IMG/VR virus record: IMGVR_UViG_3300042486_001111 | Source of the DNA: a virus | Lineage: Duplodnaviria > Heunggongvirae > Uroviricota > Caudoviricetes | Strand: one strand, 5' to 3' | Length of the DNA: 64,000 nucleotides | Shown here: positions 6,094 through 64,000 of the stretch, in pieces | How the letters are laid out: each line of letters opens with the position of its first letter | Position numbering within the stretch: the stretch's first letter is position 1 | Translations under genes and position numbers: made by a program | The notes under the pieces: generated by a model | The model's input: only the letters and a program-made list of their open reading frames with translations | Databases searched by the model: none | Told to the model about the DNA's origin: nothing

Positions 6094-6132
6094 TTATAAT
6101 ATAATTTATATTAATAAATATAAGGAAGGTAT

Positions 6133-6166
6133 AAAAAAACCCCTTAAAGAGAGGTAAGGGTTATAG
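6133..6166 (-). terminator. intrinsic terminator (minus strand: cccttacc..aagggg + T7)
   Basis: Hairpin plus T-run immediately downstream of the gene 6180..6794. Confidence 0.55.
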
Positions 6167-6179
6167 GGTTATTTAACTA

Positions 6180-6794: not shown

Positions 6795-6834
6795 ATAACA
6801 AATATAGTAAAAATTTGTTATATCGTCAAATGAA

Positions 6835-7488: not shown

Positions 7489-7577
7489 TTTTAGTTTTTA
7501 TATAAATATATTAGATTTAACAAAAATATCCCATCAAGAGGGGTTGGGGTGATTGAACAGTTCGGACGTACAAAGGT

Positions 7578-8180
7578 TTAACGGTAAACAGGATCCTTAA
7601 CACCAAATTCATATTTAAGAATAGAATCAATTTCATTTAGATAGTCACCCCATAAGTATTCAGATTCCTTTCTGGTTAAACCATAAGTGTTCTTACAATA
7701 ATCAATAAAAAATCCTGGATTAAAATGTCTGATTCTATTATACCGAAAATCTGAAAATGGTACCGATATCATAACGTCACCATAAGACGAATCATCCATT
7801 ATAGAAGTATCCGCCACCAAATACCTAAGAACCTTATCCATATAGTTAGAAACTTTCTCACCAAATATATCGTGATAGATATTCTCATTTATCGTATTAT
7901 CATATAATTTATTAGATATAATATTTTCGTAAGAACTGTATAAGTAATCAATCTCTTTATTATCTTTTATACCATAGGTATATTCTACATAAGATTTAAA
8001 AGATGGCATCCTACTACCTACCGCATTATTACCAAACCAACGTTTTGTAAGATAACCATCCATAACAGGAAAAGGTGTGATTACTATATCATCACCCTCA
8101 CCTTTATCGTATGTAATGGTACTATCCTTAACCAAACGACTAACGATTTTATTTAATAATATATACCTACCTTCGTCCAT
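7578..8180 (-). CDS. single-module member of the DKVVDFLVKDT / YGLT..E..YVW repeat family
   Basis: Contains NKIVSRLVKDSTITYD...PFP... and YGLTRKESEYLWGDY, matching the repeat unit of 9352..11235. Confidence 0.55.
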   Translation of the reverse strand: MDEGRYILLNKIVSRLVKDSTITYDKGEGDDIVITPFPVMDGYLTKRWFGNNAVGSRMPSFKSYVEYTYGIKDNKEIDYLYSSYENIISNKLYDNTINENIYHDIFGEKVSNYMDKVLRYLVADTSIMDDSSYGDVMISVPFSDFRYNRIRHFNPGFFIDYCKNTYGLTRKESEYLWGDYLNEIDSILKYEFGVKDPVYR

Positions 8181-8186
8181 ATAGAA

Positions 8187-8672
8187 TTACATCGATTTAG
8201 CCAACTTATCACTCACATCCAAAAAGAAGTGTGTTAATCCATCTTCCAAATCCTCATTTAAATTTACATAGTCATTACCATCATGTAAATCGAAATGCAT
8301 AAAGTTATAATCTGCGTCAGTATATATCTCAGCGTAATAATCTATTTCATCATCACCGTTCATAAAATTAAATATACCTATGTGTTTATATTCCTTAGGA
8401 TTGTCATCCCACTCCTCTGTGGACTCATAGGTGAACTTAACAGGTACTTCATCCACCTCACCAGAGAACTCGTAACCTGAGTCCATACTAAGTAAATTTT
8501 CGATATGTGGATCAACCTTACCCTTAGACATATTGTTTAAGAACATTCTTTCGTTGTCCGTTAACGAATCCATACCGTAATCATTAATCTTATCGAGAAT
8601 CTTATTTAGTAGTTCCTCATTCTCATTAATGAATAAATGTTTAACCTGATTTTCTGTTACAATTATTTTCAT
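8187..8672 (-). CDS. leader family D-like protein (MKIIVTENQVKHLF...)
   Basis: N-terminus resembles the MKIKLTETQYNRLL leaders. Confidence 0.5.
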   Translation of the reverse strand: MKIIVTENQVKHLFINENEELLNKILDKINDYGMDSLTDNERMFLNNMSKGKVDPHIENLLSMDSGYEFSGEVDEVPVKFTYESTEEWDDNPKEYKHIGIFNFMNGDDEIDYYAEIYTDADYNFMHFDLHDGNDYVNLNEDLEDGLTHFFLDVSDKLAKSM

Positions 8673-9351: not shown

Positions 9352-11235
9352 TTAAAATCCCCAATCATAAGACTCCTTTAATTTCTTCATATAGTCGTAC
9401 CAAACAATTTTAGTCTCCTCACCAGTAAGCCCATAATTATTCTTACAGTAACTATCAAAATAAATTAACTGAGAATCTAACCCACTATAAGTATTATTTG
9501 TCGATAAACCAAATGTGTGTTCATAAACCGATTTAAATCCAGTCCTACCTGCGGAACTGCCTGGATAATAATAAGGAGGGTTAAACCAACTATTACCAAC
9601 TTCGGTATCCTTAAACAACCAATCAACAATCTTATCTAAATAAGCCTGTTTCTTATCGTCAGATTCATTTATGGGTTTAAGATCATACATTATAGATTCT
9701 TTATTGTACCTATCCTTAATAATTTTTTTATAGTTATTCCAAATGTATTTTGTCTCATCATAGTTTAACCCATAAGTATCCCTACAAGTTATCTGTATAT
9801 CCGAAGACATACCCCACGAAAGTTTATTTTTTAAATCATCAATAAAACTAGGTAACGGTTTACCATTCGGACCTATCTGAGAAAAAGGATATATTATAAC
9901 ACCCGTTTCATATCTAATTATAGTATCGTCAACAAACCACTTAAGAATCTTATCCAAATATTTTTGTTTCCTAACTTCAGATTCATTTAAAGAATTGTAT
10001 TTTTCAGATTCATATAAATCTTTCATAAACCCTTTCCACACATATTCAGTCTCATCTTCTGTAAGTCCATATTGTTCCTCACAGAATTTTTTAAAATAAT
10101 TCTTCTGAATTGCGAATTTTACAGATTCTACATCAGTAACGTATTTTAATAAACCAAACGTTTGTTTATAAAGAGAAGAAAGTGTGATACTATTTTCTGC
10201 GTACAAATTACCAGTTTTATATGGGGGTTCAAACCAAAGACTATTCACGTCTGTATCACTAACCAACCAATCAATAATCTTATTAAGGTAATTCTGTTTC
10301 TTATCATCAGATTCATAGATAGGTTCATTAGTAGGATCGTCACCAAACATAGTGTTCCTCATTATATCCTTATATTTCCCCCATACATAAGAAACATCTT
10401 TTATATATGTTATACCATATATTTCCTCAATGTATTCCATAAAACCACCTATAGGAATAACACTATCCTTATGAAAAAGAATTTTATGGAACGGTGTAGA
10501 ATTATCAGTATTTCGTCTAGTTGCAATCTTTTGAGTAAAAGGAAAAAATATTTCCCTTTCCTCATAATCCACTTTGGTATCCTTAACTAAAAAATCTACA
10601 ACCTTATCTAAGTACTTTATTTTTCTATCGTCAGACTCATTAAAGTAGAGGGGACTGACATTATTACCAAATACAATATTATACATAATAACCTTATATG
10701 TCTCCCAAACATAATCAATGTCCTCCGTTAAATTAATTCCATACATTTCCTCAATGTATTCCGTAAAACCATCAATAGGAATATATGTATCAAAAAGACG
10801 TTTATGAAAAGTTGTGAGATTACTACTACCTTGTCTAAGTGAGTTATTATATGTAAAAGGAAAAAATAACGTCTTATTATCATAATTTACTTTGGTGTCC
10901 TTAACTAAAAAATCAACAACCTTATCTAAAAAGTTTTTTCTTCTGTCATCAGACTCATTGATAGAACCACCTTTATTATTAATCTTTTCTTTAATCATAT
11001 CAATATAAATACCCCAAACATACAGAGATTCTTCATGAGTTAAACCATAGTTGTCTTTACAGTATTGAGAGTATCTACCCTTATGAAAAAAATAATCTAA
11101 ATTGGCGTCACTAATATATAATCTGTACGATGGAAAAAAAGGAAAATCTATATGGTTATCCCCATAGTCTATAATAGTGTCCTTAACCAGAAACTCTACC
11201 ACCTTATGTAAAAAATTTTTTCTATTGTTCTCCAT
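9352..11235 (-). CDS. 627-aa protein made of six tandem ~100-aa modules (DKVVDFLVKDT...FFPF...YGLT.E..YVW.Y)
   Basis: Six recognisable repeats, each starting R/K-K-x-x-[FY]L[DHN]K[VI][VI][DE][FW]LV[KS]DT and ending [YE]YGLT..E..YVW..Y. Confidence 0.6.
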   Translation of the reverse strand: MENNRKNFLHKVVEFLVKDTIIDYGDNHIDFPFFPSYRLYISDANLDYFFHKGRYSQYCKDNYGLTHEESLYVWGIYIDMIKEKINNKGGSINESDDRRKNFLDKVVDFLVKDTKVNYDNKTLFFPFTYNNSLRQGSSNLTTFHKRLFDTYIPIDGFTEYIEEMYGINLTEDIDYVWETYKVIMYNIVFGNNVSPLYFNESDDRKIKYLDKVVDFLVKDTKVDYEEREIFFPFTQKIATRRNTDNSTPFHKILFHKDSVIPIGGFMEYIEEIYGITYIKDVSYVWGKYKDIMRNTMFGDDPTNEPIYESDDKKQNYLNKIIDWLVSDTDVNSLWFEPPYKTGNLYAENSITLSSLYKQTFGLLKYVTDVESVKFAIQKNYFKKFCEEQYGLTEDETEYVWKGFMKDLYESEKYNSLNESEVRKQKYLDKILKWFVDDTIIRYETGVIIYPFSQIGPNGKPLPSFIDDLKNKLSWGMSSDIQITCRDTYGLNYDETKYIWNNYKKIIKDRYNKESIMYDLKPINESDDKKQAYLDKIVDWLFKDTEVGNSWFNPPYYYPGSSAGRTGFKSVYEHTFGLSTNNTYSGLDSQLIYFDSYCKNNYGLTGEETKIVWYDYMKKLKESYDWGF

Positions 11236-31525: not shown

Positions 31526-32455
31526 TTAATTCTTTATATTTAAGAAAGTTCCTGATCCACCAGCCATAGTAGTCGGTAGCGCACCATTCCAAGCAGATGC
31601 CTTAACAAACTCAACGTATAAAGGAGTCAATTCCTTTTGTTTAATCTTCATTGCGAGTGCTGCTGCGTTTGCATTGATGATAGTTTTTGCGGAGTCACCT
31701 CTAGCAATTGCCATCTTTTCTTGTGCCTCTGCTTGTGCCACTAATGTTCTTTGTTGTGCGGCTTGTGCCTCTTGTACTGCCTTAGTTTTACCCTCAATAG
31801 CCTGTTGTAAAGATGTTGGTGGAATAATATTAGTTCTTAATTGGGACACTAAAAACCACTGCTCCACTCTCTTATTACACTCTGCCACAATTGCAGCTTC
31901 AAACTGTTCTCTCTGATTAAAAATGGCATCTACTTCCCATCTGTTTGCCACATCATTAACTGAAGATACAATTGCATTTTTCAACCAACCTTGTTCAATT
32001 GCTTTGGTTTCCAATCTTAGATTAACAAACATATCTCCAATAGCATCCTCTCTCAAAGAATAGTTAAAGGATGGTTTAATCGTCGCAGCAAACCCACCTT
32101 TTGTGATAACAGTTTGTTCATCGTATTCGATGTGTTGTTGGTATAGGGGGAATTCTTTAACTTGCTCAGTCCAAGAGTTATACATTACCCATCCTGTTTT
32201 ATACTGATAGTCTGATACACCTCTTTGTCCACCAGTTAGGTTTATCTTTAAACCTTTATAACCTGTATCAACCCTTTCAATAGTGAAAGGTTGTACTAAC
32301 GCAATGATAATGGATAGTAATAAAATACCTATTGGTTTAAGTAACCATTTGAGTTGAAACTCATTCCATTTACCACCAGTCATTTGATTTTTTGTTTTGT
32401 ATGCAGTAAACCCTGCAAATAATAATCCTAAAATAAAAATACTAAGTCCAATCAT
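31526..32455 (-). CDS. SPFH/band-7 (prohibitin/HflK-like) membrane protein
   Basis: N-terminal TM segment followed by an SPFH-like core and a C-terminal Ala/Gln-rich helix (QAAQQRTLVAQAEAQEKMAIARG). Confidence 0.65.
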   Translation of the reverse strand: MIGLSIFILGLLFAGFTAYKTKNQMTGGKWNEFQLKWLLKPIGILLLSIIIALVQPFTIERVDTGYKGLKINLTGGQRGVSDYQYKTGWVMYNSWTEQVKEFPLYQQHIEYDEQTVITKGGFAATIKPSFNYSLREDAIGDMFVNLRLETKAIEQGWLKNAIVSSVNDVANRWEVDAIFNQREQFEAAIVAECNKRVEQWFLVSQLRTNIIPPTSLQQAIEGKTKAVQEAQAAQQRTLVAQAEAQEKMAIARGDSAKTIINANAAALAMKIKQKELTPLYVEFVKASAWNGALPTTMAGGSGTFLNIKN

Positions 32456-55137: not shown

Positions 55138-55560
55138 TTACGTTAATTGATTTGCGGGCCCTCTAGTCGGACTTACACCCCACGGTGTACTATCTATAGG
55201 GTTCGCAGGTCCTCTACCAACATCGGTAAGTGGCCAAACTGTAGAAGATCCACCTGCAGGTGCATCTCCACCAGCCGCATCTTCTTCGTCTAATATCTCT
55301 TCAGTATAATCATCTACACCGATACCATATTCGGTAACAACGAAACCATACCCACCTTCTTTATCGTAATAACCTAAGTATATACCTTTATCATCGTAGG
55401 CAATAGTTTCATATTCCTTACTATCAAAACTTAACCTTTTAGGATCATTACCTACCCACTTAAGTATCATTCTATACCATTTCTTAGGATCACTTACGGT
55501 TTCACCAAATTCTCTTAGTAAAACTTTTTTATATTGACTTTCAGTTATTATTATTTTCAT
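55138..55560 (-). CDS. leader family D protein (MKIIITESQYKKVLL...)
   Basis: Start set at the conserved leader Met. Confidence 0.55.
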   Translation of the reverse strand: MKIIITESQYKKVLLREFGETVSDPKKWYRMILKWVGNDPKRLSFDSKEYETIAYDDKGIYLGYYDKEGGYGFVVTEYGIGVDDYTEEILDEEDAAGGDAPAGGSSTVWPLTDVGRGPANPIDSTPWGVSPTRGPANQLT

Positions 55561-56129
55561 ATTTTTAAATTTACTCTCCAATCAACCTCATCTTCATCAC
55601 TCCAATCCACATCTCTAAAATTATCTAATGTCATCTCCTCCATTATTTCTCCATCATCAGGTAAATCAAAATCTAATTCAGGATTCATAAAATCTAAAGA
55701 ATTCGTATCTAAATACATTCTTTCATAAGTACCATTTTCTACCTTATTTATTGCATCTTCTTTTGAATTGGCAGTAACTTCAACAAATCCATCTATATAT
55801 GTCCTACAAGATACTACTGTTGGCATATTAACTGCAATTTTATATGTACCTACAAATTCTATTGGTTCCCCAATTAGACTATCATATTCTGTGATAGGTA
55901 ATGGTCGGAATTTATTTTTATAGTTATATAAAAGGATATTAGTTTCATGATCAGACAAACCTAAATCCCCTTTAATTATTTTTTTCATTCCCTCGTCAGA
56001 TAAGTTTTTCTTACCTAATAATTTAAATACCCTAACCATATATTGTTGGAAGGTGTCCCCTAACCTACCGTAGTTTTTATCTTCAGTAAGTAATCTGTTG
56101 TATTGTGTTTCGGTTAATTTTATTTTCAT
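55557..56129 (-). CDS. leader family D protein (MKIKLTETQYNRLLTE...)
   Basis: Conserved leader; ATGA overlap with the previous gene. Confidence 0.55.
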   Translation of the reverse strand: MKIKLTETQYNRLLTEDKNYGRLGDTFQQYMVRVFKLLGKKNLSDEGMKKIIKGDLGLSDHETNILLYNYKNKFRPLPITEYDSLIGEPIEFVGTYKIAVNMPTVVSCRTYIDGFVEVTANSKEDAINKVENGTYERMYLDTNSLDFMNPELDFDLPDDGEIMEEMTLDNFRDVDWSDEDEVDWRVNLKI

Positions 56130-56131
56130 AA

Positions 56132-56746
56132 TTACCCATTAAAGTATATACTATCTAAATCAAAATCTATTTCACTTAGATTCTCATAGTCCCAATCATA
56201 ATTTCTCTCCCAATGTATGTCTCGATCATCATAATCGATTTCACCATTTTCATAATCTATCTCAACATCCCCACCATCTATCTTTTCTTGAAAATTTTCA
56301 TAACTAGATGCGTATGCAGATATACTACCACTACCGTAACCAGTTAAATATCCTGTCCAACTTACTGAATGTGGGAGATTCATTTTACCGTAATATTCTA
56401 AAGGTATTCCCACCAAAGATTTCCAATCATCAGTATTATTAATATTTTCCCATATAACAGTACTATAATTATGTGTTAGTAATATAACTTCATCGTTTTC
56501 ATATCCAGTCAAAGTTCTTAACTCTTCCGCAATCTTTCTGAATGATTGGGACTCTATAGGATTTTTCATTCTGAGGTAATCACCACTAGGTTCAAAGTTT
56601 TTATTTTTTAATACTATGAATATTTTTGCAATAACAGGTGTAACTTTATTATCAATATTGGTAAAATCAACGTCACCACTCAAAAATTCTTTATCATTTT
56701 CTTTAAGTAGTCTTTTATATTGATTCTCTGTTAACCTAATTTTCAT
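56132..56746 (-). CDS. leader family D protein (MKIRLTENQYKRLLKE...)
   Basis: Start set at the conserved leader Met. Confidence 0.55.
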   Translation of the reverse strand: MKIRLTENQYKRLLKENDKEFLSGDVDFTNIDNKVTPVIAKIFIVLKNKNFEPSGDYLRMKNPIESQSFRKIAEELRTLTGYENDEVILLTHNYSTVIWENINNTDDWKSLVGIPLEYYGKMNLPHSVSWTGYLTGYGSGSISAYASSYENFQEKIDGGDVEIDYENGEIDYDDRDIHWERNYDWDYENLSEIDFDLDSIYFNG

Positions 56747-56747
56747 T

Positions 56748-57062
56748 TTAATTACCTTCTTCTTCTTCTTTTTTATTGTCTTTTCTATGAGTACCAATAG
56801 TTTTAATAACCCCTAAGAATTTACCACCGAAGGTATATCCTGCAAAAAGAACCATTGCATATTCAAGTGCATCAATAATAATTTTAAATTTTTCAATATC
56901 TAACTGAGTAGTTTTATTCATACCAGCAACCAATAATACACCTAATGTAACATAGTAAGCAATAATCGCCCATAACAGATATATTCTACTTTGAGAATAT
57001 ATTCCTTTTTCTGTTAGAATATCTTTAAAGATTTTCATAATTTTTTGTATTAATTTTCTCAC
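56748..57062 (-). CDS. 2-TM membrane protein (104 aa)
   Basis: LLWAIIAYYVTLGVLLVAGM and AMVLFAGYTFGG. Confidence 0.45.
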   Translation of the reverse strand: MRKLIQKIMKIFKDILTEKGIYSQSRIYLLWAIIAYYVTLGVLLVAGMNKTTQLDIEKFKIIIDALEYAMVLFAGYTFGGKFLGVIKTIGTHRKDNKKEEEEGN

Positions 57063-57137: not shown

Positions 57138-57428
57138 TTAAAGTACTTCTTTTATTCTATCTGTTAACATTTGTTCATTAAGTACACCACTATTTCTCCA
57201 TATTGGTTTACCTTCTTTAAATAATACTAATGTTGGTATACTTCTTATTTGGTATTTAACTGCCAATTCCCTTTCCTCGTCAACATTAACTTTAACAACC
57301 TCTAAGTTTTCATTTTTACTTTTCACTTGTTCTATCACTGGGTTCATCATTTTACATGGACCACACCAAGCCGCCCAAAAATCAACCAAAACTGGTTTAT
57401 CGGATTTTAAAATTTCATCTAAATTCAT
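57138..57428 (-). CDS. trxA: thioredoxin
   Basis: VLVDFWAAWCGPCKM active site; 96 aa. Confidence 0.85.
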   Translation of the reverse strand: MNLDEILKSDKPVLVDFWAAWCGPCKMMNPVIEQVKSKNENLEVVKVNVDEERELAVKYQIRSIPTLVLFKEGKPIWRNSGVLNEQMLTDRIKEVL

Positions 57429-57466
57429 TTTTTTTATTTTTTATCTTTTTATTATTATATAAATAT

Positions 57467-57494
57467 AAAAGGGGGGTACAAAATGTACCCCCCC
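57467..57494 (-). terminator. intrinsic terminator (ggggggtaca-aaa-tgtacccccc)
   Basis: 10-bp GC-rich hairpin followed by a T-run on the minus strand. Confidence 0.55.
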
Positions 57495-57516
57495 TTCAAA
57501 CAAAAACTTTAGAGAA

Positions 57517-57717
57517 TTAGGCTTTCTCACCTACCCACTTAACTACAGAATTAAGTCCATAAATTTGAGTTATCTTTTGAACAAATCTTTTAGGATTTTT
57601 TCTAATGTAACTTAATGATTCTGTAGGGACATTTGTTTTAGAGGGTCCGAATAGAGAAAGTAATTCCTCTTCTCTGTTTTTAACTGCCTTTTGAGACACT
57701 TTTTTGACGTTTTTCAT
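57517..57717 (-). CDS. small basic protein (66 aa)
   Basis: Intact ORF; Lys/Arg-rich. Confidence 0.4.
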   Translation of the reverse strand: MKNVKKVSQKAVKNREEELLSLFGPSKTNVPTESLSYIRKNPKRFVQKITQIYGLNSVVKWVGEKA

Positions 57718-57783: not shown

Positions 57784-58209
57784 TTATTCTACCTCTAGAA
57801 TTTCAATATCAAAAATTAGTTTTTTACCAGCCATAGGGTGATTAGCGTCTATTGTAACACCATCATCAGTAATTTCTGTAACAGTTACCACCATAGTACC
57901 TCTTTCACTCTCAGATTGTAAAACGTCACCAACACTGACACCCATAGGGAATCTACCTTTCTCTAACGTAGTCACTAAACCATCTAAGTATTCTCCATAC
58001 GCATCTGAAGGTTCAATTTCTACGGTGACTTTATCACCAACACTTTTATCTAAAATACCTTTTTCAAAACCAGGAATTAAATTACCTTGACCTAAAATAG
58101 TTCTTAATGGTTCTCTTCCTTCACTTAGTGATGAATCGAATACTGTTCCGTCCTCTAATCTTCCTGTGTAATGGACTGTTACACTCTTATTTAGTTCAAC
58201 TTTACTCAT
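57784..58209 (-). CDS. slyD: FKBP-type peptidyl-prolyl cis-trans isomerase, SlyD-like (no His-rich tail)
   Basis: VTVHYTGRLEDGTVFDSS...G.G.LIPGFE...VGDK..V...P.DAYGEY...ANHP.AGK.L.F...L. Confidence 0.75.
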   Translation of the reverse strand: MSKVELNKSVTVHYTGRLEDGTVFDSSLSEGREPLRTILGQGNLIPGFEKGILDKSVGDKVTVEIEPSDAYGEYLDGLVTTLEKGRFPMGVSVGDVLQSESERGTMVVTVTEITDDGVTIDANHPMAGKKLIFDIEILEVE

Positions 58210-58258: not shown

Positions 58259-58681
58259 TTATAGACTTATTTCAAATCTGTCTTTCATTATCTGAATTTT
58301 GTCTTCAGGTACACCGTGTTCATTTATACCATTATGTCTGTTCTCTACGATTATTGAAAACACTTTATATTCATATTGTTTCGCCAACTCATAATAACGA
58401 TCCATTTCCCATTCTTGTGTGAAGGTATTCGAAACGGCAATCTCTCTGTAGAAGTTATCATTAACCAACGAATCCTTCATATATGTTTCGACAGTATCCT
58501 GACAAAATTTATGGGCATCTTTGATTTTGGTAAAATCAAAATTATACTCCCCAGTTTCTTTATCGACAAAATATTTGTCTGCCTCACAAACTAAGAAATC
58601 GTCTCCCACTAATCTTTTAGCGAATGTAGATTTACCTGAACCAGGTACACCTCTTACAATATATAAAATTTTTTCACTCAT
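58259..58681 (-). CDS. P-loop polynucleotide 5'-kinase-like protein (T4 Pnk kinase-domain-like)
   Basis: Start set at MSEKILYIVRGVPGSGKSTFAKR; CEADKYF, IAVSNTF and ENRHNGINEHGVPEDKI parallel the T4 Pnk kinase motifs. Confidence 0.55.
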   Translation of the reverse strand: MSEKILYIVRGVPGSGKSTFAKRLVGDDFLVCEADKYFVDKETGEYNFDFTKIKDAHKFCQDTVETYMKDSLVNDNFYREIAVSNTFTQEWEMDRYYELAKQYEYKVFSIIVENRHNGINEHGVPEDKIQIMKDRFEISL

Positions 58682-58860
58682 CGTTTTAAAATTAAATAAC
58701 CTATCACCAAAAAGATAATGAATAATAAGAATGGTATCCACAAAGGACTTGTGATCCACCACCAACTCCAATCAATATGGTTTGTCAATTTTAAAACCAT
58801 AAAAATAAGGAAAAGAACCATCCCGATTCCAATTCCACTAGAACTACTTTCTCTACTCAT
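58678..58860 (-). CDS. small membrane protein (60 aa, Trp-rich TM)
   Basis: GIGMVLFLIFMVL...WWWITSPLWIPFLLFIIFLVIGYLIL; ATGA overlap with the kinase. Confidence 0.4.
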   Translation of the reverse strand: MSRESSSSGIGIGMVLFLIFMVLKLTNHIDWSWWWITSPLWIPFLLFIIFLVIGYLILKR

Positions 58861-58875
58861 ATATATTAATTTAAT

Positions 58876-59532
58876 TTAAATTCTTTTTTCGTGATGATCC
58901 TTTGGTAAGGATAATTTTCTAATAGGTTGGTTTTTAACGATAGATAAAACCTCGTCCAAAGATATTGGGTGTAAGTTGTTACCGTCTACTCCAACATCTA
59001 ATGATTTACCCTCACCCAATCGTAAATTAGGTGGTAAATGTACGTGACCGTGTAAATGAATTACACCGTCATTCATACTATCCCAAGACGCAATTGGATA
59101 GTGCATACACACAAAAGAGTATTTATCCATTTGTCCTTTACCAACAATAGATGGGCGACGAATATCTAAAAACAAATAATCGTGTGTAGAACTGAAGATA
59201 TCCTTTATGTCTTCTTTATTATTACGAATATGGTGATCGTGATTACCATACGTTAAATGAATGTTCTTACAGACAATACGATTACGGAATTCAGAAATTT
59301 TTTCAAACCCACCAAAACTCCAATCGCCTAAATGGACTAACACATCATTTTCACCAACAACTTCATTAATATTATTCACCAATGCATCATTCATCTGACT
59401 AAGAGACTTAAACTTACGAGTTAGATTCTCCGCACCAACCCAAGTTGTAGTCGCAGAACAAATATTAGCGTGATTGTAATGTGTGTCACTTGTAAAAAAT
59501 ATACGTTGACCTTTTTCTAAAACTAATTTCAT
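58876..59532 (-). CDS. calcineurin-like metallophosphoesterase
   Basis: FFTSDTHYNH...LGDWSFGG...GNHDHH...HGHVH. Confidence 0.7.
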   Translation of the reverse strand: MKLVLEKGQRIFFTSDTHYNHANICSATTTWVGAENLTRKFKSLSQMNDALVNNINEVVGENDVLVHLGDWSFGGFEKISEFRNRIVCKNIHLTYGNHDHHIRNNKEDIKDIFSSTHDYLFLDIRRPSIVGKGQMDKYSFVCMHYPIASWDSMNDGVIHLHGHVHLPPNLRLGEGKSLDVGVDGNNLHPISLDEVLSIVKNQPIRKLSLPKDHHEKRI

Positions 59533-59555
59533 ATTGTAAAAGTAATGATTAATTT

Positions 59556-60206
59556 TTAATTATCCAAACAATCAGGTAAAAAAAGTAATGTTGGGTTCTT
59601 TTTTTGTATGTCTACGTCAGGATACTTATCTTTGAACTTCTTTACATCGAACTTTTTTGTGATTAAATGGTGTCCATTTTTAGTTGGTATAATTGCCTCT
59701 ATTTTGGGTCCAACTTCATGTCCAATTGGCATTCCTACCTCGTCAAATTTAACTTTGGTAATTGGATCACATTTATATTCAATAAATGCTATCATCACAG
59801 GACTATAAAGGTGTTCACCATCTACATCTACAATCCATCTCTTCTCCTGTGTTTTAATTTGTCCAACAACAGAATCAAACAAACCTTTCTGATTTGTCAC
59901 ACCGTCTCTAATACGTTCCGCAAGTAATGACAACATATTCAAAGAAACATCATTATGATTTTGTTTCTGAACGTGAATGTATGCCCTAGCCTTAAACATC
60001 TCACATAATTGTTTTACCTCATCGTATCTTCTTTCTAAATGTTCTACCGAATCAATACAATAAGTTTTGATAGTACGAACTGATTGGTGGTTATCTCTTT
60101 CACCTTCTGGTTGATCCTTCTTTCTTTTAAAGACATACAACATATAAAAGTCACCTTTTTCTGTGAAATTTAATAACGGTTTAATTAATTCTATATTATC
60201 TATCAT
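59556..60206 (-). CDS. hypothetical protein (216 aa) inside the RNA-repair gene neighbourhood
   Basis: Intact ORF; ATGA overlap with the RNA ligase gene. Confidence 0.45.
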   Translation of the reverse strand: MIDNIELIKPLLNFTEKGDFYMLYVFKRKKDQPEGERDNHQSVRTIKTYCIDSVEHLERRYDEVKQLCEMFKARAYIHVQKQNHNDVSLNMLSLLAERIRDGVTNQKGLFDSVVGQIKTQEKRWIVDVDGEHLYSPVMIAFIEYKCDPITKVKFDEVGMPIGHEVGPKIEAIIPTKNGHHLITKKFDVKKFKDKYPDVDIQKKNPTLLFLPDCLDN

Positions 60207-61273
60207 AACTTTTTAAATTCTGGTTTAAGTGCCTTCCAAATAATCTTATCATAATCTTTTCCATCCCACATCGCAAACATTATTGCCTTAACGATTGGGT
60301 GTTTATCTTTAATAAATTCCGCAAACTCTTTCTTAGTCGGTTCCACTTCTATGTCACCATATTTACCAAACCTAAAGTAATCATATGTTTTACCTAATTG
60401 ATTCCAGTATTGGTAATACCCATAGTTTAAAGAACTAACATATAATTTAATTTTATTGTAGAATTCATCTGGTACATCTTTTAATAACTCCAACACATCT
60501 TTACCCTCACTTAACATTTCCCATATTGCAGTGGTAGATACGTTAGTCATTATCTTATGTAGACGAAGATACTCCTCACCCTTAACTTTCATCCTATCAC
60601 CGTTAGAGAACTGAACAACGAAACCTTCTTCATCGTCTCCTATCATTCCCTTCAATAATGAATAGTCTTTTATACCATCGTATTGTTTTACTACCTTAAA
60701 ACCAATATTAGTTATTAAATTTTTTAATCTGATATCATTCTCTTCATTACATAAATCAACTTCATAACCAGTTTTAGTTTCTATCATACCCAATAAAACC
60801 AAATCCTCAAATGAGTATTTTACCACAATACGATTCTCATCATATATTATCTCAAACAGATATGTATAATCTTTATGAAGTTTCTCATAGCCATAGTTCT
60901 TCAACATCTCAAACCCTTTAACTGCCTGATCAGAAGTAAAGGAACCTCTAGTCGCCAAAACCCAAACATCATTATAAGAAAATAGAATACCCAAAGAACC
61001 ATCCATCTTTTCGTAGACACTAAATTGTTCTGTAGGTGTATGTCTACCCTCTTCTATGTTAAAGAATTTACGGAATGGTCTTGCCACAATATCCCCATTA
61101 GAGTTTGTAACTAATCCACGACACATTAATGTGATGTCATCCCATAGTCCTTCGTACTGAACCTTTTCAGAATAATTCCAAATATCTAAATCCAATGTCT
61201 GATGGGATTGTCTGTATAACAATCCATCCTCTTCATATTTTTTAAGTATCTCTTTCATATCCTTATTTTTCAA
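60203..61273 (-). CDS. ATP-dependent RNA ligase (covalent nucleotidyltransferase, KxDG)
   Basis: Motif I YEKMDGS, motif IV EEGFVVQF, motif V RMKVKGEEY. Confidence 0.65.
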   Translation of the reverse strand: MKNKDMKEILKKYEEDGLLYRQSHQTLDLDIWNYSEKVQYEGLWDDITLMCRGLVTNSNGDIVARPFRKFFNIEEGRHTPTEQFSVYEKMDGSLGILFSYNDVWVLATRGSFTSDQAVKGFEMLKNYGYEKLHKDYTYLFEIIYDENRIVVKYSFEDLVLLGMIETKTGYEVDLCNEENDIRLKNLITNIGFKVVKQYDGIKDYSLLKGMIGDDEEGFVVQFSNGDRMKVKGEEYLRLHKIMTNVSTTAIWEMLSEGKDVLELLKDVPDEFYNKIKLYVSSLNYGYYQYWNQLGKTYDYFRFGKYGDIEVEPTKKEFAEFIKDKHPIVKAIMFAMWDGKDYDKIIWKALKPEFKKL

Positions 61274-61997
61274 ATGTTGGTTTTAACCACATATCCCCAC
61301 CAAACATAATGTCCAAAATTTTAGGGTTAACTGTTTTTATTCTAGAAAACAATTCCAAAGACTTTAACGTATCGTGTTTTAACATCTTTAAAAGTTCTTC
61401 TCTGATTCTTTCCTTTGATACTACCAGCTCTAATTTATCTACAACACTATCCATTAAACAAGTCTCCCAAATCGTAGGTGATATCTCAAAACCTTTGGTG
61501 ATTGAGAATCTAAATGCCCTAATCAATCTTAATGGATCATCTAACATAGTTACTCTTGCATCTAATGGAGTTAACAGTAGTTTATTTTCTAATGCCCAAA
61601 TACCATCGAACAAATCTATAATTGCACCGTTCTCATCTTTCGCCAATGCGTTCAACGTAAAGTCTCTACGAACCAAATCATCTTCCAACCTACCCAATTC
61701 TAAAATAGGTTTTCTTGTACCTTCAACATATCCCACCTCTTTTCTTGCGAGAACAAAATCTGCAACCAAACCATAATGGAAGTGATCTTTAGGGAACTTT
61801 GCCCTAATAGTAAAACAGTCGGGTGTACTTAAGAAAATAGTAAATTCCTTATGTAATAGCCAATCAGTCATTATTTGGAATCCCTCCTCTACGGTTCGAT
61901 TCAAATTGTCTAAGACAAATGTAAAATCGATGTCGTTTGTTTCCACACCCATCAATTCATCTCTAACACAACCACCTACTTCATATATTTTTGGCAT
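61263..61997 (-). CDS. cca: tRNA nucleotidyltransferase (CCA-adding enzyme), class II head domain
   Basis: Start set at MPKIYEVGGCVRDELMG...DIDF; RRDFTLNALA; DPLRLIRAFRFS. The longer ORF (to 62021) is less likely. Confidence 0.8.
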   Translation of the reverse strand: MPKIYEVGGCVRDELMGVETNDIDFTFVLDNLNRTVEEGFQIMTDWLLHKEFTIFLSTPDCFTIRAKFPKDHFHYGLVADFVLARKEVGYVEGTRKPILELGRLEDDLVRRDFTLNALAKDENGAIIDLFDGIWALENKLLLTPLDARVTMLDDPLRLIRAFRFSITKGFEISPTIWETCLMDSVVDKLELVVSKERIREELLKMLKHDTLKSLELFSRIKTVNPKILDIMFGGDMWLKPTFEK

Positions 61998-61999
61998 AA

Positions 62000-62236
62000 T
62001 TAAAAATTTACATTTACACATTCCTCACCATTCCAATCGGCAGTAACTCTATCCCATATACCCTCAGTATCTCTATAAATTATATCCATTCCAACAATAC
62101 TTTCACCAATTACTTCCCTTATCTCAGTTAGGACATTTTCAAAGTTATTCGTCACCGACATAAAATTACCATACCACTCATCAACAATCTTTAATTCATT
62201 ACCATCAATGGTGAAACTATAGTTTGACTTTCTCAT
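62000..62236 (-). CDS. hypothetical protein (78 aa)
   Basis: Intact ORF. Confidence 0.4.
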   Translation of the reverse strand: MRKSNYSFTIDGNELKIVDEWYGNFMSVTNNFENVLTEIREVIGESIVGMDIIYRDTEGIWDRVTADWNGEECVNVNF

Positions 62237-62274
62237 ATGTTATTATTGAAGAACAAATATAGTAAAAATGTTTT

Positions 62275-62306
62275 ATATAAACAAAAAAAAGGTGATTAAA
62301 AATCAC
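62275..62306 (-). terminator. intrinsic terminator (aggtga...tcacct hairpin + T8 on minus strand)
   Basis: aaaaaaaaggtgattaaaaatcacct. Confidence 0.5.
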
Positions 62307-62520
62307 CTTATATCGAAATTATTTAGTTTCTTCTTTCTTTTTGGTTTTCCTCACCTTTTTTTCCTTAACTTCCTCTATCTCATCATTAGGTATTTCTATT
62401 AATGCGTATTCAGGAAAAAACTGATTCATACCGATACCCACACAAACTTCTACAAATTTTTTGTTATTACTCATTTTTTTATTTTTATTTTTTGTTATCA
62501 GGTTAATACTTTATTTTTAG

Positions 62521-62598
62521 TAGTCAGGGTAGGATTCGAACCTACAATGAGCAACCTTTTTACGGGATTCGGCACCGCGCCTCATTACACTCCTGACT
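62521..62598 (-). tRNA. aberrant tRNA-like element (canonical acceptor stem and T-arm; non-canonical D/anticodon region; anticodon unassigned)
   Basis: Minus strand reads AGTCAGG-AG-TGTAATGAGGCGCGGTGCCGAATCCCGTAAAAAGGTTGCTCATT-GTAGG-TTCGAAT-CCTAC-CCTGACT-A. No standard cloverleaf; contains a 6-bp AATGAG/CTCATT stem enclosing 29 nt. Confidence 0.35.
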
Positions 62599-62754
62599 AA
62601 ATTATGATGATAGTGTTGGGATACCCATCTCGTCCCAATCTTAACTGCTTAACCCTAGTTTTACGATGCATCGGCAGGGGGTGCTGAATTCCGAATCCAT
62701 TCTGAATTGTCGACATCCGTTGAATGGGGAAAACCACTATCATTATCTTACTAT

Positions 62755-62828
62755 GTGGTCCCTGTTGGGATCGAACCAACCACCTACTGATTATGAGTCA
62801 GTTGCTCTAACCGAATGAGCTAAGGGAC
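62755..62828 (-). tRNA. tRNA-Met (CAT) (elongator or Ile2-lysidine type)
   Basis: GGTCCCT-TA-GCTC-ATTCGGTTA-GAGC-A-ACTGA-CTCATAA-TCAGT-AGGTG-GTTGG-TTCGATC-CCAAC-AGGGACC-A folded by hand; 74 nt. Confidence 0.8.
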
Positions 62829-62908
62829 CTAATGGGTAGAATCAGACGCGTTCTGTCTACCGAGACCTTGTCGTTAACTTTCGTCAGAGCGGAACAAGAC
62901 ACTATTAG

Positions 62909-62982
62909 TGATCCCGAATGGATTCGAACCATTGACCTACTGCTTAGAAGGCAGTTGCTCTATCCAGCTGAGCTACGGGACC
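62909..62982 (-). tRNA. tRNA-Arg (TCT)
   Basis: GGTCCCG-TA-GCTC-AGCTGGATA-GAGC-A-ACTGC-CTTCTAA-GCAGT-AGGTC-AATGG-TTCGAAT-CCATT-CGGGATC-A; 74 nt. Confidence 0.8.
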
Positions 62983-63153
62983 AATTTTAAAAGATGATGA
63001 ATGACTTTATCAGGAATCTCGCCTTCGACTTCACACACCATTAGAGAGTCGGGAATTACGACAATACAATTAAGAATGTCAACCTATCCTTAGTGTGTAC
63101 CCTTGCGTCACGTCTCTCCACGCTTATCATTCTACGCTTTGTATCACCTTTTG

Positions 63154-63238
63154 TAGTCGGGGCGGGAATCGAACCCGCACGGACGCAATGTCCATTGGAT
63201 TTTAAGTCCAACGTGTCTACCTATTCCACCACCCGACC
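63154..63238 (-). tRNA. tRNA-Leu (TAA), type II with long variable arm
   Basis: GGTCGGG-TG-GTG-GAATAGGTAGA-CAC-G-TTGGA-CTTAAAA-TCCAA-TGGACATTGCGTCCGT-GCGGG-TTCGATT-CCCGC-CCCGACT-A; 85 nt. Confidence 0.75.
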
Positions 63239-63273
63239 AAAAGTATTAACCAATAAATTAAAGAACATTCTAG

Positions 63274-63345
63274 TACTGCCACGGGGAATCGAACCCCGCT
63301 TTTATGGATGAAAACCATAGGTCCTAACCGATAGACGATGGCAGC
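63274..63345 (-). tRNA. tRNA-Glu (TTC)
   Basis: GCTGCCA-TC-GTCT-ATCGGTTA-GGAC-C-TATGG-TTTTCAT-CCATA-AAAG-CGGGG-TTCGATT-CCCCG-TGGCAGT-A; 72 nt. Confidence 0.75.
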
Positions 63346-63351
63346 GGTTTG

Positions 63352-63426
63352 CGGTGCGTATGGGATTCGAACCCATGACCTCTGCCGTGACAGGGCAGCA
63401 TTCTAACCAGGCTAAACTAACGCACC
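63352..63426 (-). tRNA. tRNA-Asp (GTC)
   Basis: GGTGCGT-TA-GTTT-AGCCTGGTTA-GAAT-G-CTGCC-CTGTCAC-GGCAG-AGGTC-ATGGG-TTCGAAT-CCCAT-ACGCACC-G; 75 nt; 6 nt from tRNA-Glu. Confidence 0.8.
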
Positions 63427-63877
63427 ATACCCCCTTTATTAACCCCATTCTGATTATCTTTATACTACAATCAGACGTTACTAATGTAGTCCTTATCGTA
63501 TTGTCTGACACCACTATCATATTACCCTAGTGACTTAGGCATCCACAGTGAGGAGTTAGGGGGACTAGTATTATAAAACCAACAGGACTATCAAACACCT
63601 TTACTCCGTAGTCTTAGTATTTTATCGACTTTAAGAGATCTGTACTCGATTCTTTTCGATTAGACTTTTAATCCTTATCGATTATACCTTTCCTCCCAGA
63701 CTTCGTATTCTTTGCGCAAACCTATCCGAAGTTCAAAGGGTCAGGTCCTTTAGTGATGAAAAATTAGTCATCTTATTTGATAGAACACTGTTGGTTTAAA
63801 TATGTTTCAAAGAACGCTTTCTTTTTTTCTTTTACAATTATAACTACTATTTTTTAAAAAAACAATAGATATGACAA

Positions 63878-64000
63878 TTATTTTTCAGATATTTTATCTA
63901 AGATTTTAGACAAAGAATGGACTATCTGAGATTTAATCTCATTCTCATAACCCATTCTAAGATCTTCAGTCTTTTCGTTATAACTACGAATAAGTTTATT
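63878..64000 (-). CDS. 5'-truncated CDS running off the window end (C-terminal ...RMGYENEIKSQIVHSLSKILDKISEK)
   Basis: Open frame from the window edge to the stop at 63878-63880. Confidence 0.3.
   Translation of the reverse strand, partial: NKLIRSYNEKTEDLRMGYENEIKSQIVHSLSKILDKISEK

Follow-up and report, generated by a model that had tools for sequence, protein, structure and literature searches.

A probable tRNA maintenance and repair operon directly after the tRNA array of a Caudoviricetes phage

In phage T4, tRNA repair by Pnkp and Rnl1 counters the PrrC anticodon nuclease. LigD, which acts in bacterial non-homologous end joining, consists of an AEP polymerase, a 3'-phosphoesterase and a ligase. 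The HD-Pnk protein of Runella, which has an HD plus kinase architecture, has been characterised biochemically (PMC6097658). RNA-repair neighbourhoods have also been described in phage surveys (PMC7824862, section 3.4.9; PMC9503650, section 3.7.3). The nucleotidyltransferases named in these surveys are RlaP, the CCA-adding enzyme and Thg1, and AEP is mentioned in connection with replication only.

Here, we explored a locus of this kind in a window of 64,000 nucleotides, the whole stretch of DNA analysed, from a Caudoviricetes virus (IMG/VR record IMGVR_UViG_3300042486_001111). A sequence-only reading had proposed five consecutive repair genes immediately upstream of six tRNA genes. The five minus-strand ORFs, with low coordinates 58259, 58876, 59556, 60203 and 61263, all exist. 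However, they are not strictly consecutive, because a 60-aa membrane-protein gene missed by that reading (58678-58860) lies between the metallophosphoesterase (MPE) and kinase genes. The cassette is indeed near the tRNA array, but it lies downstream of the tRNAs in the direction of transcription. Between the two are a 51-aa ORF, a terminator-like hairpin with a T-run (62289..62309, minus strand, found by consensus scan only) and a 78-aa ORF (62000..62236, minus strand). This hairpin is the putative boundary between the unit of the tRNAs and the 51-aa ORF and the repair operon. The putative operon opens with the 78-aa ORF, which ends 2 nt ahead of the CCA-enzyme start; this ORF had no match in Pfam or PHROG, and the relative L003 has a 78-aa gene at the equivalent place.

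Six repair-related genes thus lie on the minus strand between 62289-62309 and 57466-57498, encoding a CCA-adding enzyme, an Rnl1 ligase, a 216-aa protein, an MPE, the 60-aa membrane protein and a kinase. The transcription unit probably ends at a strong terminator-like hairpin of 15 bp (57466..57498, minus strand, consensus scan). An FKBP isomerase gene (57784-58209) and a 66-aa ORF (57517-57717), both on the minus strand, belong to the same putative unit. Start and stop codons overlap as ATGA at two junctions (ligase/216-aa protein and membrane protein/kinase), and the remaining intergenic gaps are 2-49 nt. A thioredoxin gene is found just past the hairpin, outside the putative unit, and the window around the cassette is rich in accessory genes without assigned function.

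Five canonical tRNA genes (Asp-GUC, Glu-UUC, Leu-UAA, Arg-UCU and Met-CAU) were found at 62755..63426 on the minus strand by ARAGORN and Rfam, with Rfam scores of 55-72 bits. The same tRNA set is found upstream of the cassette in the relatives L008 and L053. Of the six tRNAs claimed earlier, the sixth is probably a tRNA-like RNA at 62520..62598 (minus strand), a sub-threshold element (Rfam tRNA 23.7 bits versus a gathering score of 29) that ARAGORN called solely with lowered thresholds (-ps). Its acceptor stem and T arm are intact; its D and anticodon regions are aberrant, yet highly conserved in sequence. This RNA is kept in L003, L008, L053, L109 and L116, and compensatory double changes occur in 8 of its 23 pairs. 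Direct reading of the 3' trailers showed that none of the five tRNA genes, nor the tRNA-like RNA, encodes the 3' CCA. Thus, all phage tRNAs need CCA addition.

The gene for this step could be that at 61263..61997 (minus strand), where homology establishes a class-II tRNA nucleotidyltransferase of CCA-adding type, as had been read from the sequence. The 244-aa protein matches PF01743 (1.8e-17) and phrog_24229 (2.5e-58; a profile of 245 positions) and has the motifs GGCVRD16, DID30, RRD118 and DDPLR161; its most likely start is at 61997. It reaches 1e-28 against the NCBIfam CCA models, yet scores far under their cut-offs. The enzyme is short and consists of head and neck domains only, without body and tail; its alignments to solved enzymes of 390-580 aa end at about residue 215-232. 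In CCA-adding enzymes, the body and tail domains usually hold the tRNA.

The ATP-dependent RNA ligase is encoded at 60203..61258 (minus strand; 351 aa from ATG, with 61258 as the most likely start). By homology it is a member of the Rnl1 family: it matches PF09511 (4.9e-18, 66 bits versus a cut-off of 28), phrog_562 (3.3e-67) and the T4 Rnl1 structures (2c5u, 5.4e-12; 2c5u and 5tt6 both about 5e-12). The motifs K89-M-D-G, FEIIY140, E216-G-F-V and K229-V-K231 include the KxDG, EGFV and KxK motifs already recognised in the sequence. TIGR02308 was matched over residues 48-345 (9e-20), with 71 bits, below the equivalog cut-off of 242. The ligase groups with Rnl1 proteins rather than with DNA ligases or capping enzymes.

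The 216-aa protein (59556..60206, minus strand; phrog_14949) is uncharacterised. A check for a 2H or other phosphoesterase fold had been suggested from the sequence; no 2H fold and no 2H motifs were found. Its structure model resembles primase-polymerases, so that a primase-polymerase (AEP)-like fold is predicted, with one invariant His, and the protein is a candidate nucleotidyltransferase. Its gene lies between those of the ligase and the MPE, with an ATGA overlap of its start and the ligase stop that suggests translational coupling.

The MPE (58876..59532, minus strand; 218 aa) matches phrog_547 (6.8e-43) and keeps the full set of invariant motifs (D16xH18, G69D70, G96NHD99, H144 and G162HxH165), together with a C-terminal D212-H-H. 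The calcineurin-type assignment is hence borne out at the level of the superfamily by homology. The likeness to bacterial Pnkp proposed earlier does not hold, since the MPE belongs to a different, aq_1665-like clade. Aquifex aq_1665 (1xm7, E 2.9e-10) was the sole significant solved structure found with the MPE profile, and no Pnkp or lambda-phosphatase chain was matched among solved structures. There was no Pfam match, and the NCBIfam match was weak (PdeM, a ligase-associated DNA-damage protein, E 0.02). From its gene context, the MPE is presumed to heal 2',3'-cyclic-phosphate or 3'-phosphate ends. However, it may have some other job, as indicated by its having no detectable kinship with the Pnkp phosphatase and by its occurrence in Flavobacterium phage immuto, where it follows the tRNA array without the other cassette genes.

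The predicted 60-aa membrane protein (58678..58860, minus strand; phrog_1374, 1.6e-21) is kept at the same position in L003-L008, L053, L056 and L069. Its gene is overlapped by the upstream part of the 170-aa TTG ORF that had been taken for the kinase gene, and its stop overlaps the kinase start. The kinase gene is instead 58259..58678 (minus strand), encoding 139 aa from ATG; nearly all of the 120 listed homologues have 138-150 aa. The protein is a candidate stand-alone P-loop 5'-OH polynucleotide kinase, with matches to AAA_33 (8e-9), phrog_2071 (1.2e-37) and phrog_505, 'polynucleotide kinase' (1.4e-7). We compared a profile of 53 relatives with the PDB and found that the top solved match was T4 Pnk (1ly1, E 1e-8, whole domain), with the kinase domain of Clostridium thermocellum Pnkp in second place (4gp7, E 5.6e-6). 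The motif GVPGSGKS is present and an invariant D34 aligns to T4 Asp35; T4 Arg38 is not conserved. Among relatives at 47-52% identity there are fusions to HD domains and to Rnl1 ligases (the latter in both orders), and one relative at 42% identity is fused to CNPase. Homology thus places the kinase in the Pnk clade, as the T4-Pnk-like label had implied, and not among unrelated dNMP or AAA kinases.

The gene context was then compared in relatives. In L003-L008, L053, L056 and L069, the block is identical and again comes after the same tRNA set. In a set of 51 loci with the CCA gene as anchor, the AEP-like gene was found within 8 kb in 21, the MPE in 15, the kinase in 13 and the ligase in 8, in many different orders. 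Because related contigs retain the block and its genes remain neighbours in ten or more different gene orders, with homologues at 30-96% identity, the clustering is not due to chance; it is a conserved, rearranging cluster. In L009/L010-type relatives, cREC_REC, HAD_SAK_2, Janus/Ocnus phosphatases and a Band-7 protein replace the MPE and kinase around the same pair of CCA and AEP-like genes. The kinase, MPE and Rnl1 genes each occur in hundreds of phage records. In Pseudomonas phage K8 all three are found inside a stretch of about 3 kb, and in Aeromonas phage 2L372X the kinase gene is directly beside Rnl1. In cultured phages such as these, the kinase family (35-47% identity) and the MPE family (about 30%) are next to Rnl1. 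A NAD-salvage pair (PRPP-synthetase-like and NAMPT) adjoins these genes in K8 and, in L003, interrupts the cassette.

We propose, with a probability of about 0.7, that the locus is an operon for tRNA maintenance and repair, situated immediately behind the tRNA array of the phage. With tRNA as the probable substrate, the 139-aa kinase would phosphorylate the 5'-OH, the stand-alone MPE would open and remove the cyclic or 3' phosphate, and the ligase would seal the 3'-OH/5'-PO4 break after healing. The short CCA-adding enzyme would build or rebuild the 3' CCA. The AEP-like protein, whatever activity it may have, would most likely contribute a further nucleotidyl-transfer or RNA-end-binding function to this pathway. 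By analogy with T4, the operon could serve as counter-defence against PrrC, RloC, VapC or colicins, as the sequence-only reading suggested. Several observations weigh against the proposal: the separate kinship of the MPE and its lone occurrence in immuto, the many relatives in which the AEP-like gene has no repair genes nearby, the low TIGR02308 score of the ligase, the missing body and tail domains of the CCA enzyme, and the loss of T4 Arg38 in the kinase.

The AEP-like protein might be unrelated to RNA repair. It would then be a small DNA primase, a replication-initiation protein or the product of an accessory gene in a hot spot, and the remaining genes of the cassette would function without it. 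Its gene is better conserved than its neighbours (67-88% versus about 50-60% identity, the latter in more distant loci), it stands alone among unrelated genes in many relatives, with no repair genes within 10 kb, and it is near DNA polymerase genes in the crAss-like phage cr116_1. However, its three commonest neighbours are the CCA enzyme, MPE and kinase, and the MPE or CCA enzyme is still found near homologues of as little as 29-37% identity. In Cellulophaga phage phi17:2, the AEP-like gp033 adjoins the CCA enzyme, whereas a canonical Prim-Pol is located beside the DNA polymerase. The related cultured phage immuto was absent among the AEP-like tblastn matches, which argues that this is not a core replication gene. 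Together with the overlap with the ligase stop, these observations make such a role unlikely, though it deserves to be kept in mind.

A second explanation for the operon, which we consider rather improbable, is housekeeping of the phage tRNAs with no host nuclease involved: the CCA enzyme may do no more than mature the tRNAs of the phage, and the kinase, MPE and ligase would process precursor ends or recycle fragments. This would agree with the lack of encoded CCA in the five tRNAs and the tRNA-like RNA, with the constant position of the operon after the tRNA array in close relatives, and with the lone MPE after the array in immuto. But neither a kinase nor a ligase is needed to mature bacterial-type tRNAs, and the kinase-ligase pair lies away from tRNA genes in cultured phages. 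Moreover, the fusion partners of the kinase (HD, CNPase and Rnl1) and the substitutes cREC and HAD_SAK are end-healing enzymes for cleaved RNA.

LigD-like mending of breaks in the phage genome, e.g., after restriction, by the AEP-like polymerase, phosphoesterase, kinase and ligase is very doubtful. LigD unites comparable activities, DNA ends are also acted on by T4 Pnk and Runella HD-Pnk (PMC6097658), and the MPE has its weak match to PdeM. However, the ligase is of the Rnl1 family and not a DNA ligase; the partners that recur most steadily are a tRNA nucleotidyltransferase, tRNA genes and the cREC and HAD_SAK RNA-repair domains; and phi17:2 has a separate DNA ligase besides its canonical Prim-Pol. 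That the genes are chance neighbours forming no module is hardly credible. The accessory genes that fill the window and the FKBP isomerase and thioredoxin genes just downstream would suit it, but co-occurrence across at least ten gene orders at 30-96% identity, domain fusions in relatives and overlapping start and stop codons speak against it.

Compared with T4, the proposed repair operon has the same logic of a 5'-kinase, a 3'-end phosphoesterase and an Rnl1-family ligase; its ligase is homologous to T4 Rnl1, and the P-loop and catalytic Asp of the kinase are conserved. Unlike T4 Pnkp, the kinase lacks a HAD (DxDxT) phosphatase domain and the MPE is separate, and the ligase is no equivalog of T4 RnlA. 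Beyond the T4 set, the operon also encodes a CCA-adding enzyme, an AEP-like protein and a small membrane protein, and it adjoins a tRNA array.

The Pnkp-Hen1 system of Clostridium thermocellum shares the set of kinase, binuclear metallophosphoesterase and adenylyltransferase ligase, and among solved families the CthPnk kinase domain ranks second for our kinase profile. The PHROG profile phrog_8238 (737 positions, annotated 'RNA ligase') is matched at its N-terminus by the kinase (2-109), weakly in its middle by the MPE (191-253, E 0.0038) and at its C-terminus by the ligase (426-682). In contrast, the phage has three separate genes, an MPE of the aq_1665-like clade and an Rnl1-type ligase, and a domain search of the operon genes found no Hen1 methyltransferase. 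In the HD-Pnk/ligase/Tpt1 cluster of Runella slithyformis (Bacteroidota), the Pnk kinase gene adjoins and overlaps an ATP-dependent ligase gene, and the HD plus kinase architecture is seen in relatives of the phage kinase. However, the phage phosphoesterase is a separate MPE gene rather than an HD domain, the ligase family differs, and the cassette has no Tpt1 or methyltransferase-HIT genes. LigD differs in that it acts on DNA with a DNA ligase, has a phosphoesterase of a different fold and is a fusion protein.

The phage neighbourhoods of jumbo phages (PMC7824862) and of rV5/Mydo-type phages (PMC9503650) also contain tRNA genes, an ATP-grasp (Rnl1) ligase, a nucleotide/polynucleotide kinase, a calcineurin-like phosphoesterase and a CCA-adding enzyme. 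The kinase/MPE/Rnl1 kit is therefore already known from many phages and is less unusual than was first thought. The present cassette differs from these neighbourhoods in being without RlaP, sirtuin and cREC, and in having the AEP-like gene between ligase and MPE; its unusual element is this AEP-like protein travelling with the repair genes.

The cassette near the high-coordinate end of the window, on the minus strand, is read here, with a probability of about 0.7, as a tRNA maintenance and heal-and-seal operon. Its enzyme families, as assigned by sequence comparison, are well supported. The proposed substrates of the operon, like its anti-nuclease purpose, are drawn by analogy from T4.

The last 6 kb of the window have about 30% G+C and are transcribed from the minus strand. 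Our ORF listing reproduced exactly the low coordinates of all five ORFs that the sequence-only reading had proposed as a repair cassette (58259, 58876, 59556, 60203, and 61263). In the order of transcription, the CCA gene occupies 61263-61997 (minus strand), with 61997 as the most likely start (MPKIYEVGG; homologues have 244-245 aa), and the ligase gene 60203-61258 (minus strand), with 61258 as the most likely start (a homologue has 351 aa). They are followed by the gene of a 216-aa protein (59556-60206), the metallophosphoesterase (MPE) gene (58876-59532, minus strand), and the kinase gene (58259-58678, minus strand), which encodes 139 aa from an ATG start (MSEKILY...). The TTG start of the kinase ORF proposed earlier lies too far upstream, as an ATG start and a length of 138-150 aa are found in almost every one of the 120 homologues listed. 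The upstream part of that ORF is filled, in another frame, by a conserved gene for a 60-aa membrane protein (58678-58860, minus strand; phrog_1374, E 1.6e-21), which the first reading overlooked. ATGA stop/start overlaps occur between the ligase gene and the 216-aa gene and between the membrane-protein gene and the kinase gene, and the remaining gaps are 2-49 nt. This anatomy fits one transcription unit located 3' of the tRNA array. The cassette had been placed upstream of the array, but the direction of transcription puts it downstream.

Two terminator-like hairpins, each a consensus match only, were found. One (62289-62309) separates the tRNA unit from a 78-aa ORF preceding the CCA gene, and the other (57466-57498) comes after an FKBP-type prolyl isomerase gene and a 66-aa ORF. 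The FKBP gene (57784-58209, minus strand) and a thioredoxin gene (57138-57428, minus strand) come after the kinase gene, a placement that the closest relatives share for both; the FKBP gene seems to belong to the transcription unit of the repair operon. One related locus encodes a cyclophilin-type isomerase at a distance of about 3 kb from the homologue of the 216-aa gene. Further along, at 55138-56797 (minus strand), three tandem ORFs of 147, 190, and 221 aa share the N-terminal motif MKI[IKR][IL]TE[STN]QY[KN][KR][VL]L and resemble a small family of paralogues. For ten large ORFs in other parts of the window, PHROG annotation was almost without result.

The ligase was assigned to the Rnl1 family. 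It matched PF09511 (RNA_lig_T4_1) with an E-value of 4.9e-18 and 66.2 bits (cut-off 28.3), phrog_562 with 3.3e-67, and the structures of T4 Rnl1 with about 5e-12. Its motifs I (K89MDG), III (F140EIIY), IV (E216GFV), and V (K229VK) correspond to K99EDG, FEF, EGYVA, and KIK of T4 Rnl1. The NCBIfam equivalog TIGR02308 was matched over residues 48-345 (9e-20), at 71 bits, below its cut-off of 242. Because the cut-off of PF09511 was passed and that of TIGR02308 was missed, the protein is a member of the Rnl1 family without an ortholog-level match. The C-terminal domain of T4 Rnl1 confers its tRNA specificity. At the C-terminus of the window ligase, the TIGR02308 alignment reaches residue 345 of 356 (position 354 of 373 in the model), and phmmer aligned the protein with the T4 structure up to residue 279.

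The kinase, searched as a single sequence, matched only the generic AAA_33 (8e-9), phrog_2071 'ATPase' (1.2e-37), and phrog_505 'polynucleotide kinase', the last with a weaker score (1.4e-7). An exhaustive search returned 7,293 relatives, most of which stand alone and have 130-140 aa. When a profile of 53 relatives was compared with the PDB, T4 Pnk was the top match (1ly1/1ltq, E 1e-8) and the whole kinase domain was aligned; the next matches included the kinase domain of Clostridium thermocellum Pnkp (4gp7, 5.6e-6), Capnocytophaga Pnkp1, and L-seryl-tRNA(Sec) kinase. The P-loop GVPGSGKS is present, and the invariant D34 is aligned with T4 Asp35, the catalytic (general) base of T4 Pnk. An aromatic residue occupies the position of T4 Arg38, and the conserved 'NRH' Arg aligns with T4 Arg122, not Arg126; Arg38 and Arg126 are the acceptor and donor arginines of T4 Pnk. 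The 139 aa correspond to the kinase domain alone, and a HAD (DxDxT) 3'-phosphatase domain is absent from the polypeptide.

Fused relatives of the kinase (42-52% identity) combine it with an HD domain in both orders and with an Rnl1 ligase in both orders, and one relative consists of two kinase domains and a CNPase 2',3'-cyclic phosphodiesterase. HD plus kinase is the architecture of Runella HD-Pnk, a biochemically characterised end-healing enzyme (PMC6097658). In addition, phrog_8238 ('RNA ligase', 737 positions) is matched by the kinase in its N-terminal part, by the MPE in its middle (weakly, E 0.0038), and by the ligase in its C-terminal part. With T4 Pnk as the best solved match, the catalytic Asp aligned, and end-healing and ligase fusions among its relatives, the proposal of a T4-Pnk-like kinase stands. 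The proposal of an ATP-dependent RNA ligase agrees with the Rnl1 assignment. The contrary outcomes named beforehand, a ligase that groups with DNA ligases or capping enzymes and a kinase that groups with unrelated kinases, did not occur.

The MPE matched phrog_547 (6.8e-43), and no Pfam model (Metallophos included) or NCBIfam model was matched. The motifs of the superfamily (DxH, GD, GNH(D/E), H, GH, and GHxH) are all present: across 13 homologues there is no variation at D16, H18, G69, D70, G96-N-H-D99, H144, and G162-H-x-H165. Besides these classical metal-binding motifs, an Asp-His-His near the C-terminus (residues 212-214) is equally invariant. A profile of these 13 homologues matched only the uncharacterised Aquifex protein aq_1665 in the PDB (1xm7, 2.9e-10), and no Pnkp or lambda-phosphatase chain appeared at E <= 1. 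A phosphatase of the MPE type, as in bacterial Pnkp, had been proposed: the motifs agree with the MPE superfamily, but the profile comparison gave no kinship with Pnkp beyond the superfamily. The gene neighbourhood suggests that the MPE could act on RNA 2',3'-cyclic phosphate or 3'-phosphate ends.

Six tRNA genes had been counted beside the cassette. ARAGORN and Rfam agreed on five canonical genes (Met-CAU, Arg-UCU, Leu-UAA, Glu-UUC, and Asp-GUC; 62755-63426, minus strand), and the sixth is most likely a sub-threshold, conserved tRNA-like RNA at 62520-62598 (minus strand), at the 3' end of the array. Against the Rfam tRNA model this element reached 23.7 bits (gathering score 29), and it was called by ARAGORN only with lowered thresholds. 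Its acceptor stem and T arm are intact, with compensatory changes in 8 of 23 pairs across relatives; its centre is nearly invariant (CGTAATGAGGCACGGTGCCGAGTCC...), and normal D and anticodon arms are not formed. Its possible roles towards the adjoining enzymes are those of a substrate, decoy, or cofactor. Within and upstream of the array there are unusually long non-coding spacers at 62830-62907 (78 nt), 62983-63152 (170 nt), and 63427-63880 (about 450 nt), which had no Rfam match at E <= 0.1.

The putative CCA-adding enzyme was recognised by its class-II head motifs, in agreement with the first reading: GGCVRD16, DID30 (A), RRD118 (B), and DDPLR161 (D) are present, PF01743 was matched with 64 bits (cut-off 23), and the match to phrog_24229 is clear. 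The protein has 244 aa and consists of head and neck only. Alignments to solved enzymes (390-580 aa) end at about residue 215-232, the body and tail domains, which bind tRNA, are missing, and every NCBIfam CCA model scored far below its cut-off. The enzyme could add full CCA, or only A, CC, or poly(A). Proteins of this short form (244-245 aa) make up a separate family, phrog_24229, whose profile has a length of 245, and Cellulophaga phage phi17:2 carries one of them (6619-7356 of the compared locus). A 3' CCA is encoded by none of the five tRNA genes and is absent from the tRNA-like element too. Thus, the phage's own tRNAs need the enzyme at least for their maturation, which makes it harder to read the CCA gene as purely 'repair'. 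A less likely rival reading of the whole operon is housekeeping of these tRNAs.

The 216-aa protein had no sequence match in Pfam, NCBIfam, or the PDB, the last tried both as a single sequence and as a profile. A Pfam scan of 37 family members produced scattered noise only, with one member touching DNA_primase_S (E 0.08). The protein belongs to phrog_14949 and to an environmental family of great size; 6,559 database proteins match it, and the top 120 are 71-96% identical. In a family alignment that takes in relatives of 32-44% identity, gathered with the phi17:2 homologue, the invariant residues are R28-K-K30, K47, Y49, E63, R74, K122, W124, D127, D129, G178, and H180. The AlphaFold2 model is confident (pLDDT 86, pTM 0.78). 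Foldseek gave nothing significant against the PDB (top match eIF4E, TM 0.23) and uncharacterised phage proteins only against viral models. In the lower ranks of the structure-match list there are further archaeo-eukaryotic primases (AEP, or Prim-Pol): HP0184, LigD-type polymerases, and CAPP. Invariant candidates were found for AEP motif I (WIVD127VD129, on strand 124-129) and motif II, sGxH (TKNG178HH180LI, on strand 178-183), and position 199, the candidate for the motif-III acid, is Asp or Glu in most, not all, of the 37 sequences. Two results speak against an AEP assignment: the empty Foldseek search of the PDB, and the hhalign comparison of the family with the phi17:2 Prim-Pol, which was not significant although its best local alignment sets the GxH on motif II, SGGWHWI. 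We consider that the 216-aa protein is probably AEP-like, an assignment that is not established.

Other assignments for this protein were rejected. The sequence-only reading had raised a 2H fold, and the check came out against it: a single His is invariant, an HxT/S pair is absent, and among the structure matches the best 2H entry comes 43rd. It is not the missing body and tail of a split CCA enzyme either, because its model is alpha/beta and those domains consist of helices only. Nor can its homologue be taken for the replicative primase of phi17:2, since that phage has its own Prim-Pol. A LigD-like DNA-end repair system is a further, improbable rival for the module as a whole; the ligase is of the Rnl1 family and is neither a DNA ligase nor a capping enzyme.

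We compared gene neighbourhoods in related loci, which are phylogenetically related, so that the counts are not independent events. Within 4 kb of the AEP-like gene, 73 non-redundant IMG/VR loci held the CCA gene 19 times, the MPE 17 times, and the kinase 12 times, and next came thymidylate synthase (11) and the ligase (6). Around the CCA gene (51 loci), the AEP-like gene was the commonest partner (21), followed by the MPE (15), the kinase (13), and the ligase (8). The gene orders vary: CCA-ligase-AEP-MPE-kinase, MPE-kinase-ligase-CCA-AEP, AEP-MPE-kinase-CCA, AEP-CCA-MPE-kinase, CCA-MPE-kinase...AEP, and AEP-ligase-MPE-kinase. Many close relatives carry the AEP-like gene without any of these partners within 8-10 kb, and an AEP-like gene foreign to the module is a rival explanation. 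Chance adjacency of the genes is contradicted by the conservation data.

Relatives of a second type (L009 and L010) lack the MPE and the kinase. Their CCA/AEP-like pair is flanked by cREC_REC, a domain that processes cyclic phosphates (2.4e-21), and an RNA-repair phosphatase of the HAD 'Swiss Army Knife' type (4.4e-22), and also by a Janus/Ocnus phosphatase and a Band-7 protein. In L010, HAD_SAK_2 lies at 2144-2722, Band-7/SPFH at 5514-6419, the Janus/Ocnus phosphatase at 6500-6817, and cREC_REC at 10444-10854. This arrangement is the same syntax with other phosphatases. The window itself has a 309-aa Band-7/SPFH homologue at 31526-32455 (minus strand), 27 kb from the cassette and 65% identical to the Band-7 protein beside the L009 AEP-like gene.

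At greater distances the association was also observed. The AEP-like gene of phi17:2 (33% identity) directly adjoins the short CCA enzyme, and the canonical Prim-Pol lies elsewhere, beside the DNA polymerase. In the crAss-like phage cr116_1 the AEP-like gene is 1.6 kb from an RNA ligase. On MAG contigs, homologues at 29-37% identity still have an MPE or CCA homologue within 8 kb; several of these contigs are 100-400 kb long and are thus probably phages. Among 185,579 species genomes scanned, the AEP-like family occurred on MAG contigs only, with 0 records titled as an isolate genome. After the AEP-like/CCA pair, phi17:2 encodes gp031 (7358-8509 of its locus), a PARP-type (PF00644) ADP-ribosyltransferase-like protein annotated 'polymerase', and has a macro-domain gene at another site of its genome; the two hint at NAD-dependent RNA-end chemistry.

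Beyond the tRNA maintenance and heal-and-seal reading, we put forward a more speculative proposal, which we hold to be rather unlikely. In it, the 216-aa protein would be the founding member of a family of small AEP-fold nucleotidyltransferases, undescribed so far and restricted to phages, which would act on RNA together with the truncated CCA and heal-and-seal enzymes and restore nucleotides lost from damaged tRNAs. The tRNA-like RNA beside the tRNA array could then serve this protein as template, cofactor, or decoy. The lesions would be a wobble base excised by an RloC-type nuclease or a trimmed 3' end. If this were true, the phage could undo lesions beyond the reach of the classical T4 pathway, and the protein might explain how the phage copes with nucleases that remove nucleotides and do not merely cut. 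An AEP-like protein acting on RNA ends would be a new enzyme class in RNA repair. Burroughs and Aravind reportedly mentioned RNA-acting prim-pol domains in 2016 (NAR).

Repair of nuclease-cut tRNAs by phages is a textbook counter-defence, and to our knowledge the experiments on it come essentially from T4. The kinase and the 216-aa protein each have more than 6,000 database matches; the phage group carrying the operon is very abundant in the environment, and its hosts are probably Bacteroidota. The split-gene kit also occurs in hundreds of cultured phages, where its genes bear vague labels like 'ATPase' or 'phosphoesterase', and a testable function for these genes is useful and unsurprising. 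The uncharacterised AEP-like family is the main point of interest; the tRNA-like RNA, which is conserved, and the truncated form of the CCA enzyme come second.

The component families are common: the kinase is held by 620 phage records, the MPE by 1,130, and Rnl1 by 1,823. A near-identity DNA search against phage genomes matched tRNAs only, so there is no close cultured relative; by protein, the best is Flavobacterium phage immuto (MPE 68% identity). Pseudomonas phage K8 has the order HD phosphohydrolase, MPE, ..., Rnl1, 'ATPase' (the same kinase family), PRPP-synthetase-like protein, and NAMPT, and in Aeromonas phage 2L372X the kinase gene directly adjoins Rnl1. The K8 pair of PRPP-synthetase-like protein and NAMPT comes directly after the kinase (4421-7247 of the K8 locus) and presumably resembles the published phage NAD-reconstitution pathway NARP1. 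In a close relative (L003, 1948-6874), the CCA gene and the ligase gene are separated by an inserted NAD-salvage island of Pribosyltran/PRPP-synthetase-like, nucleoside deoxyribosyltransferase-like, and NAMPT genes. The region has the look of a counter-defence hot-spot.

T4 Pnkp carries a C-terminal HAD phosphatase on the same polypeptide, whereas the window kinase does not. Bacterial Pnkp-Hen1 unites kinase, MPE, and ligase in one polypeptide, and its MPE belongs to the lambda-phosphatase/CthPnkp clade; in contrast, the window has three separate genes with others between them, and its MPE lies outside that clade. A partner like the Hen1 2'-O-methyltransferase was not seen, as no operon gene has a methyltransferase domain. 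Iyer et al. (2021; PMC7824862, section 3.4.9) described tRNAs, ATP-grasp ligases, polynucleotide kinases, and phosphoesterases in jumbo phages, with calcineurin-like phosphoesterases 'in a small number' of them, and named RlaP, the CCA-adding enzyme, and Thg1 as nucleotidyltransferases. Neither that survey nor PMC9503650 mentions an AEP-like protein outside replication, and we found no biochemical test of the split-gene repair kit in the literature. Given the earlier surveys and the cultured phages, the concept and most of the components are thus already known from comparative genomics.
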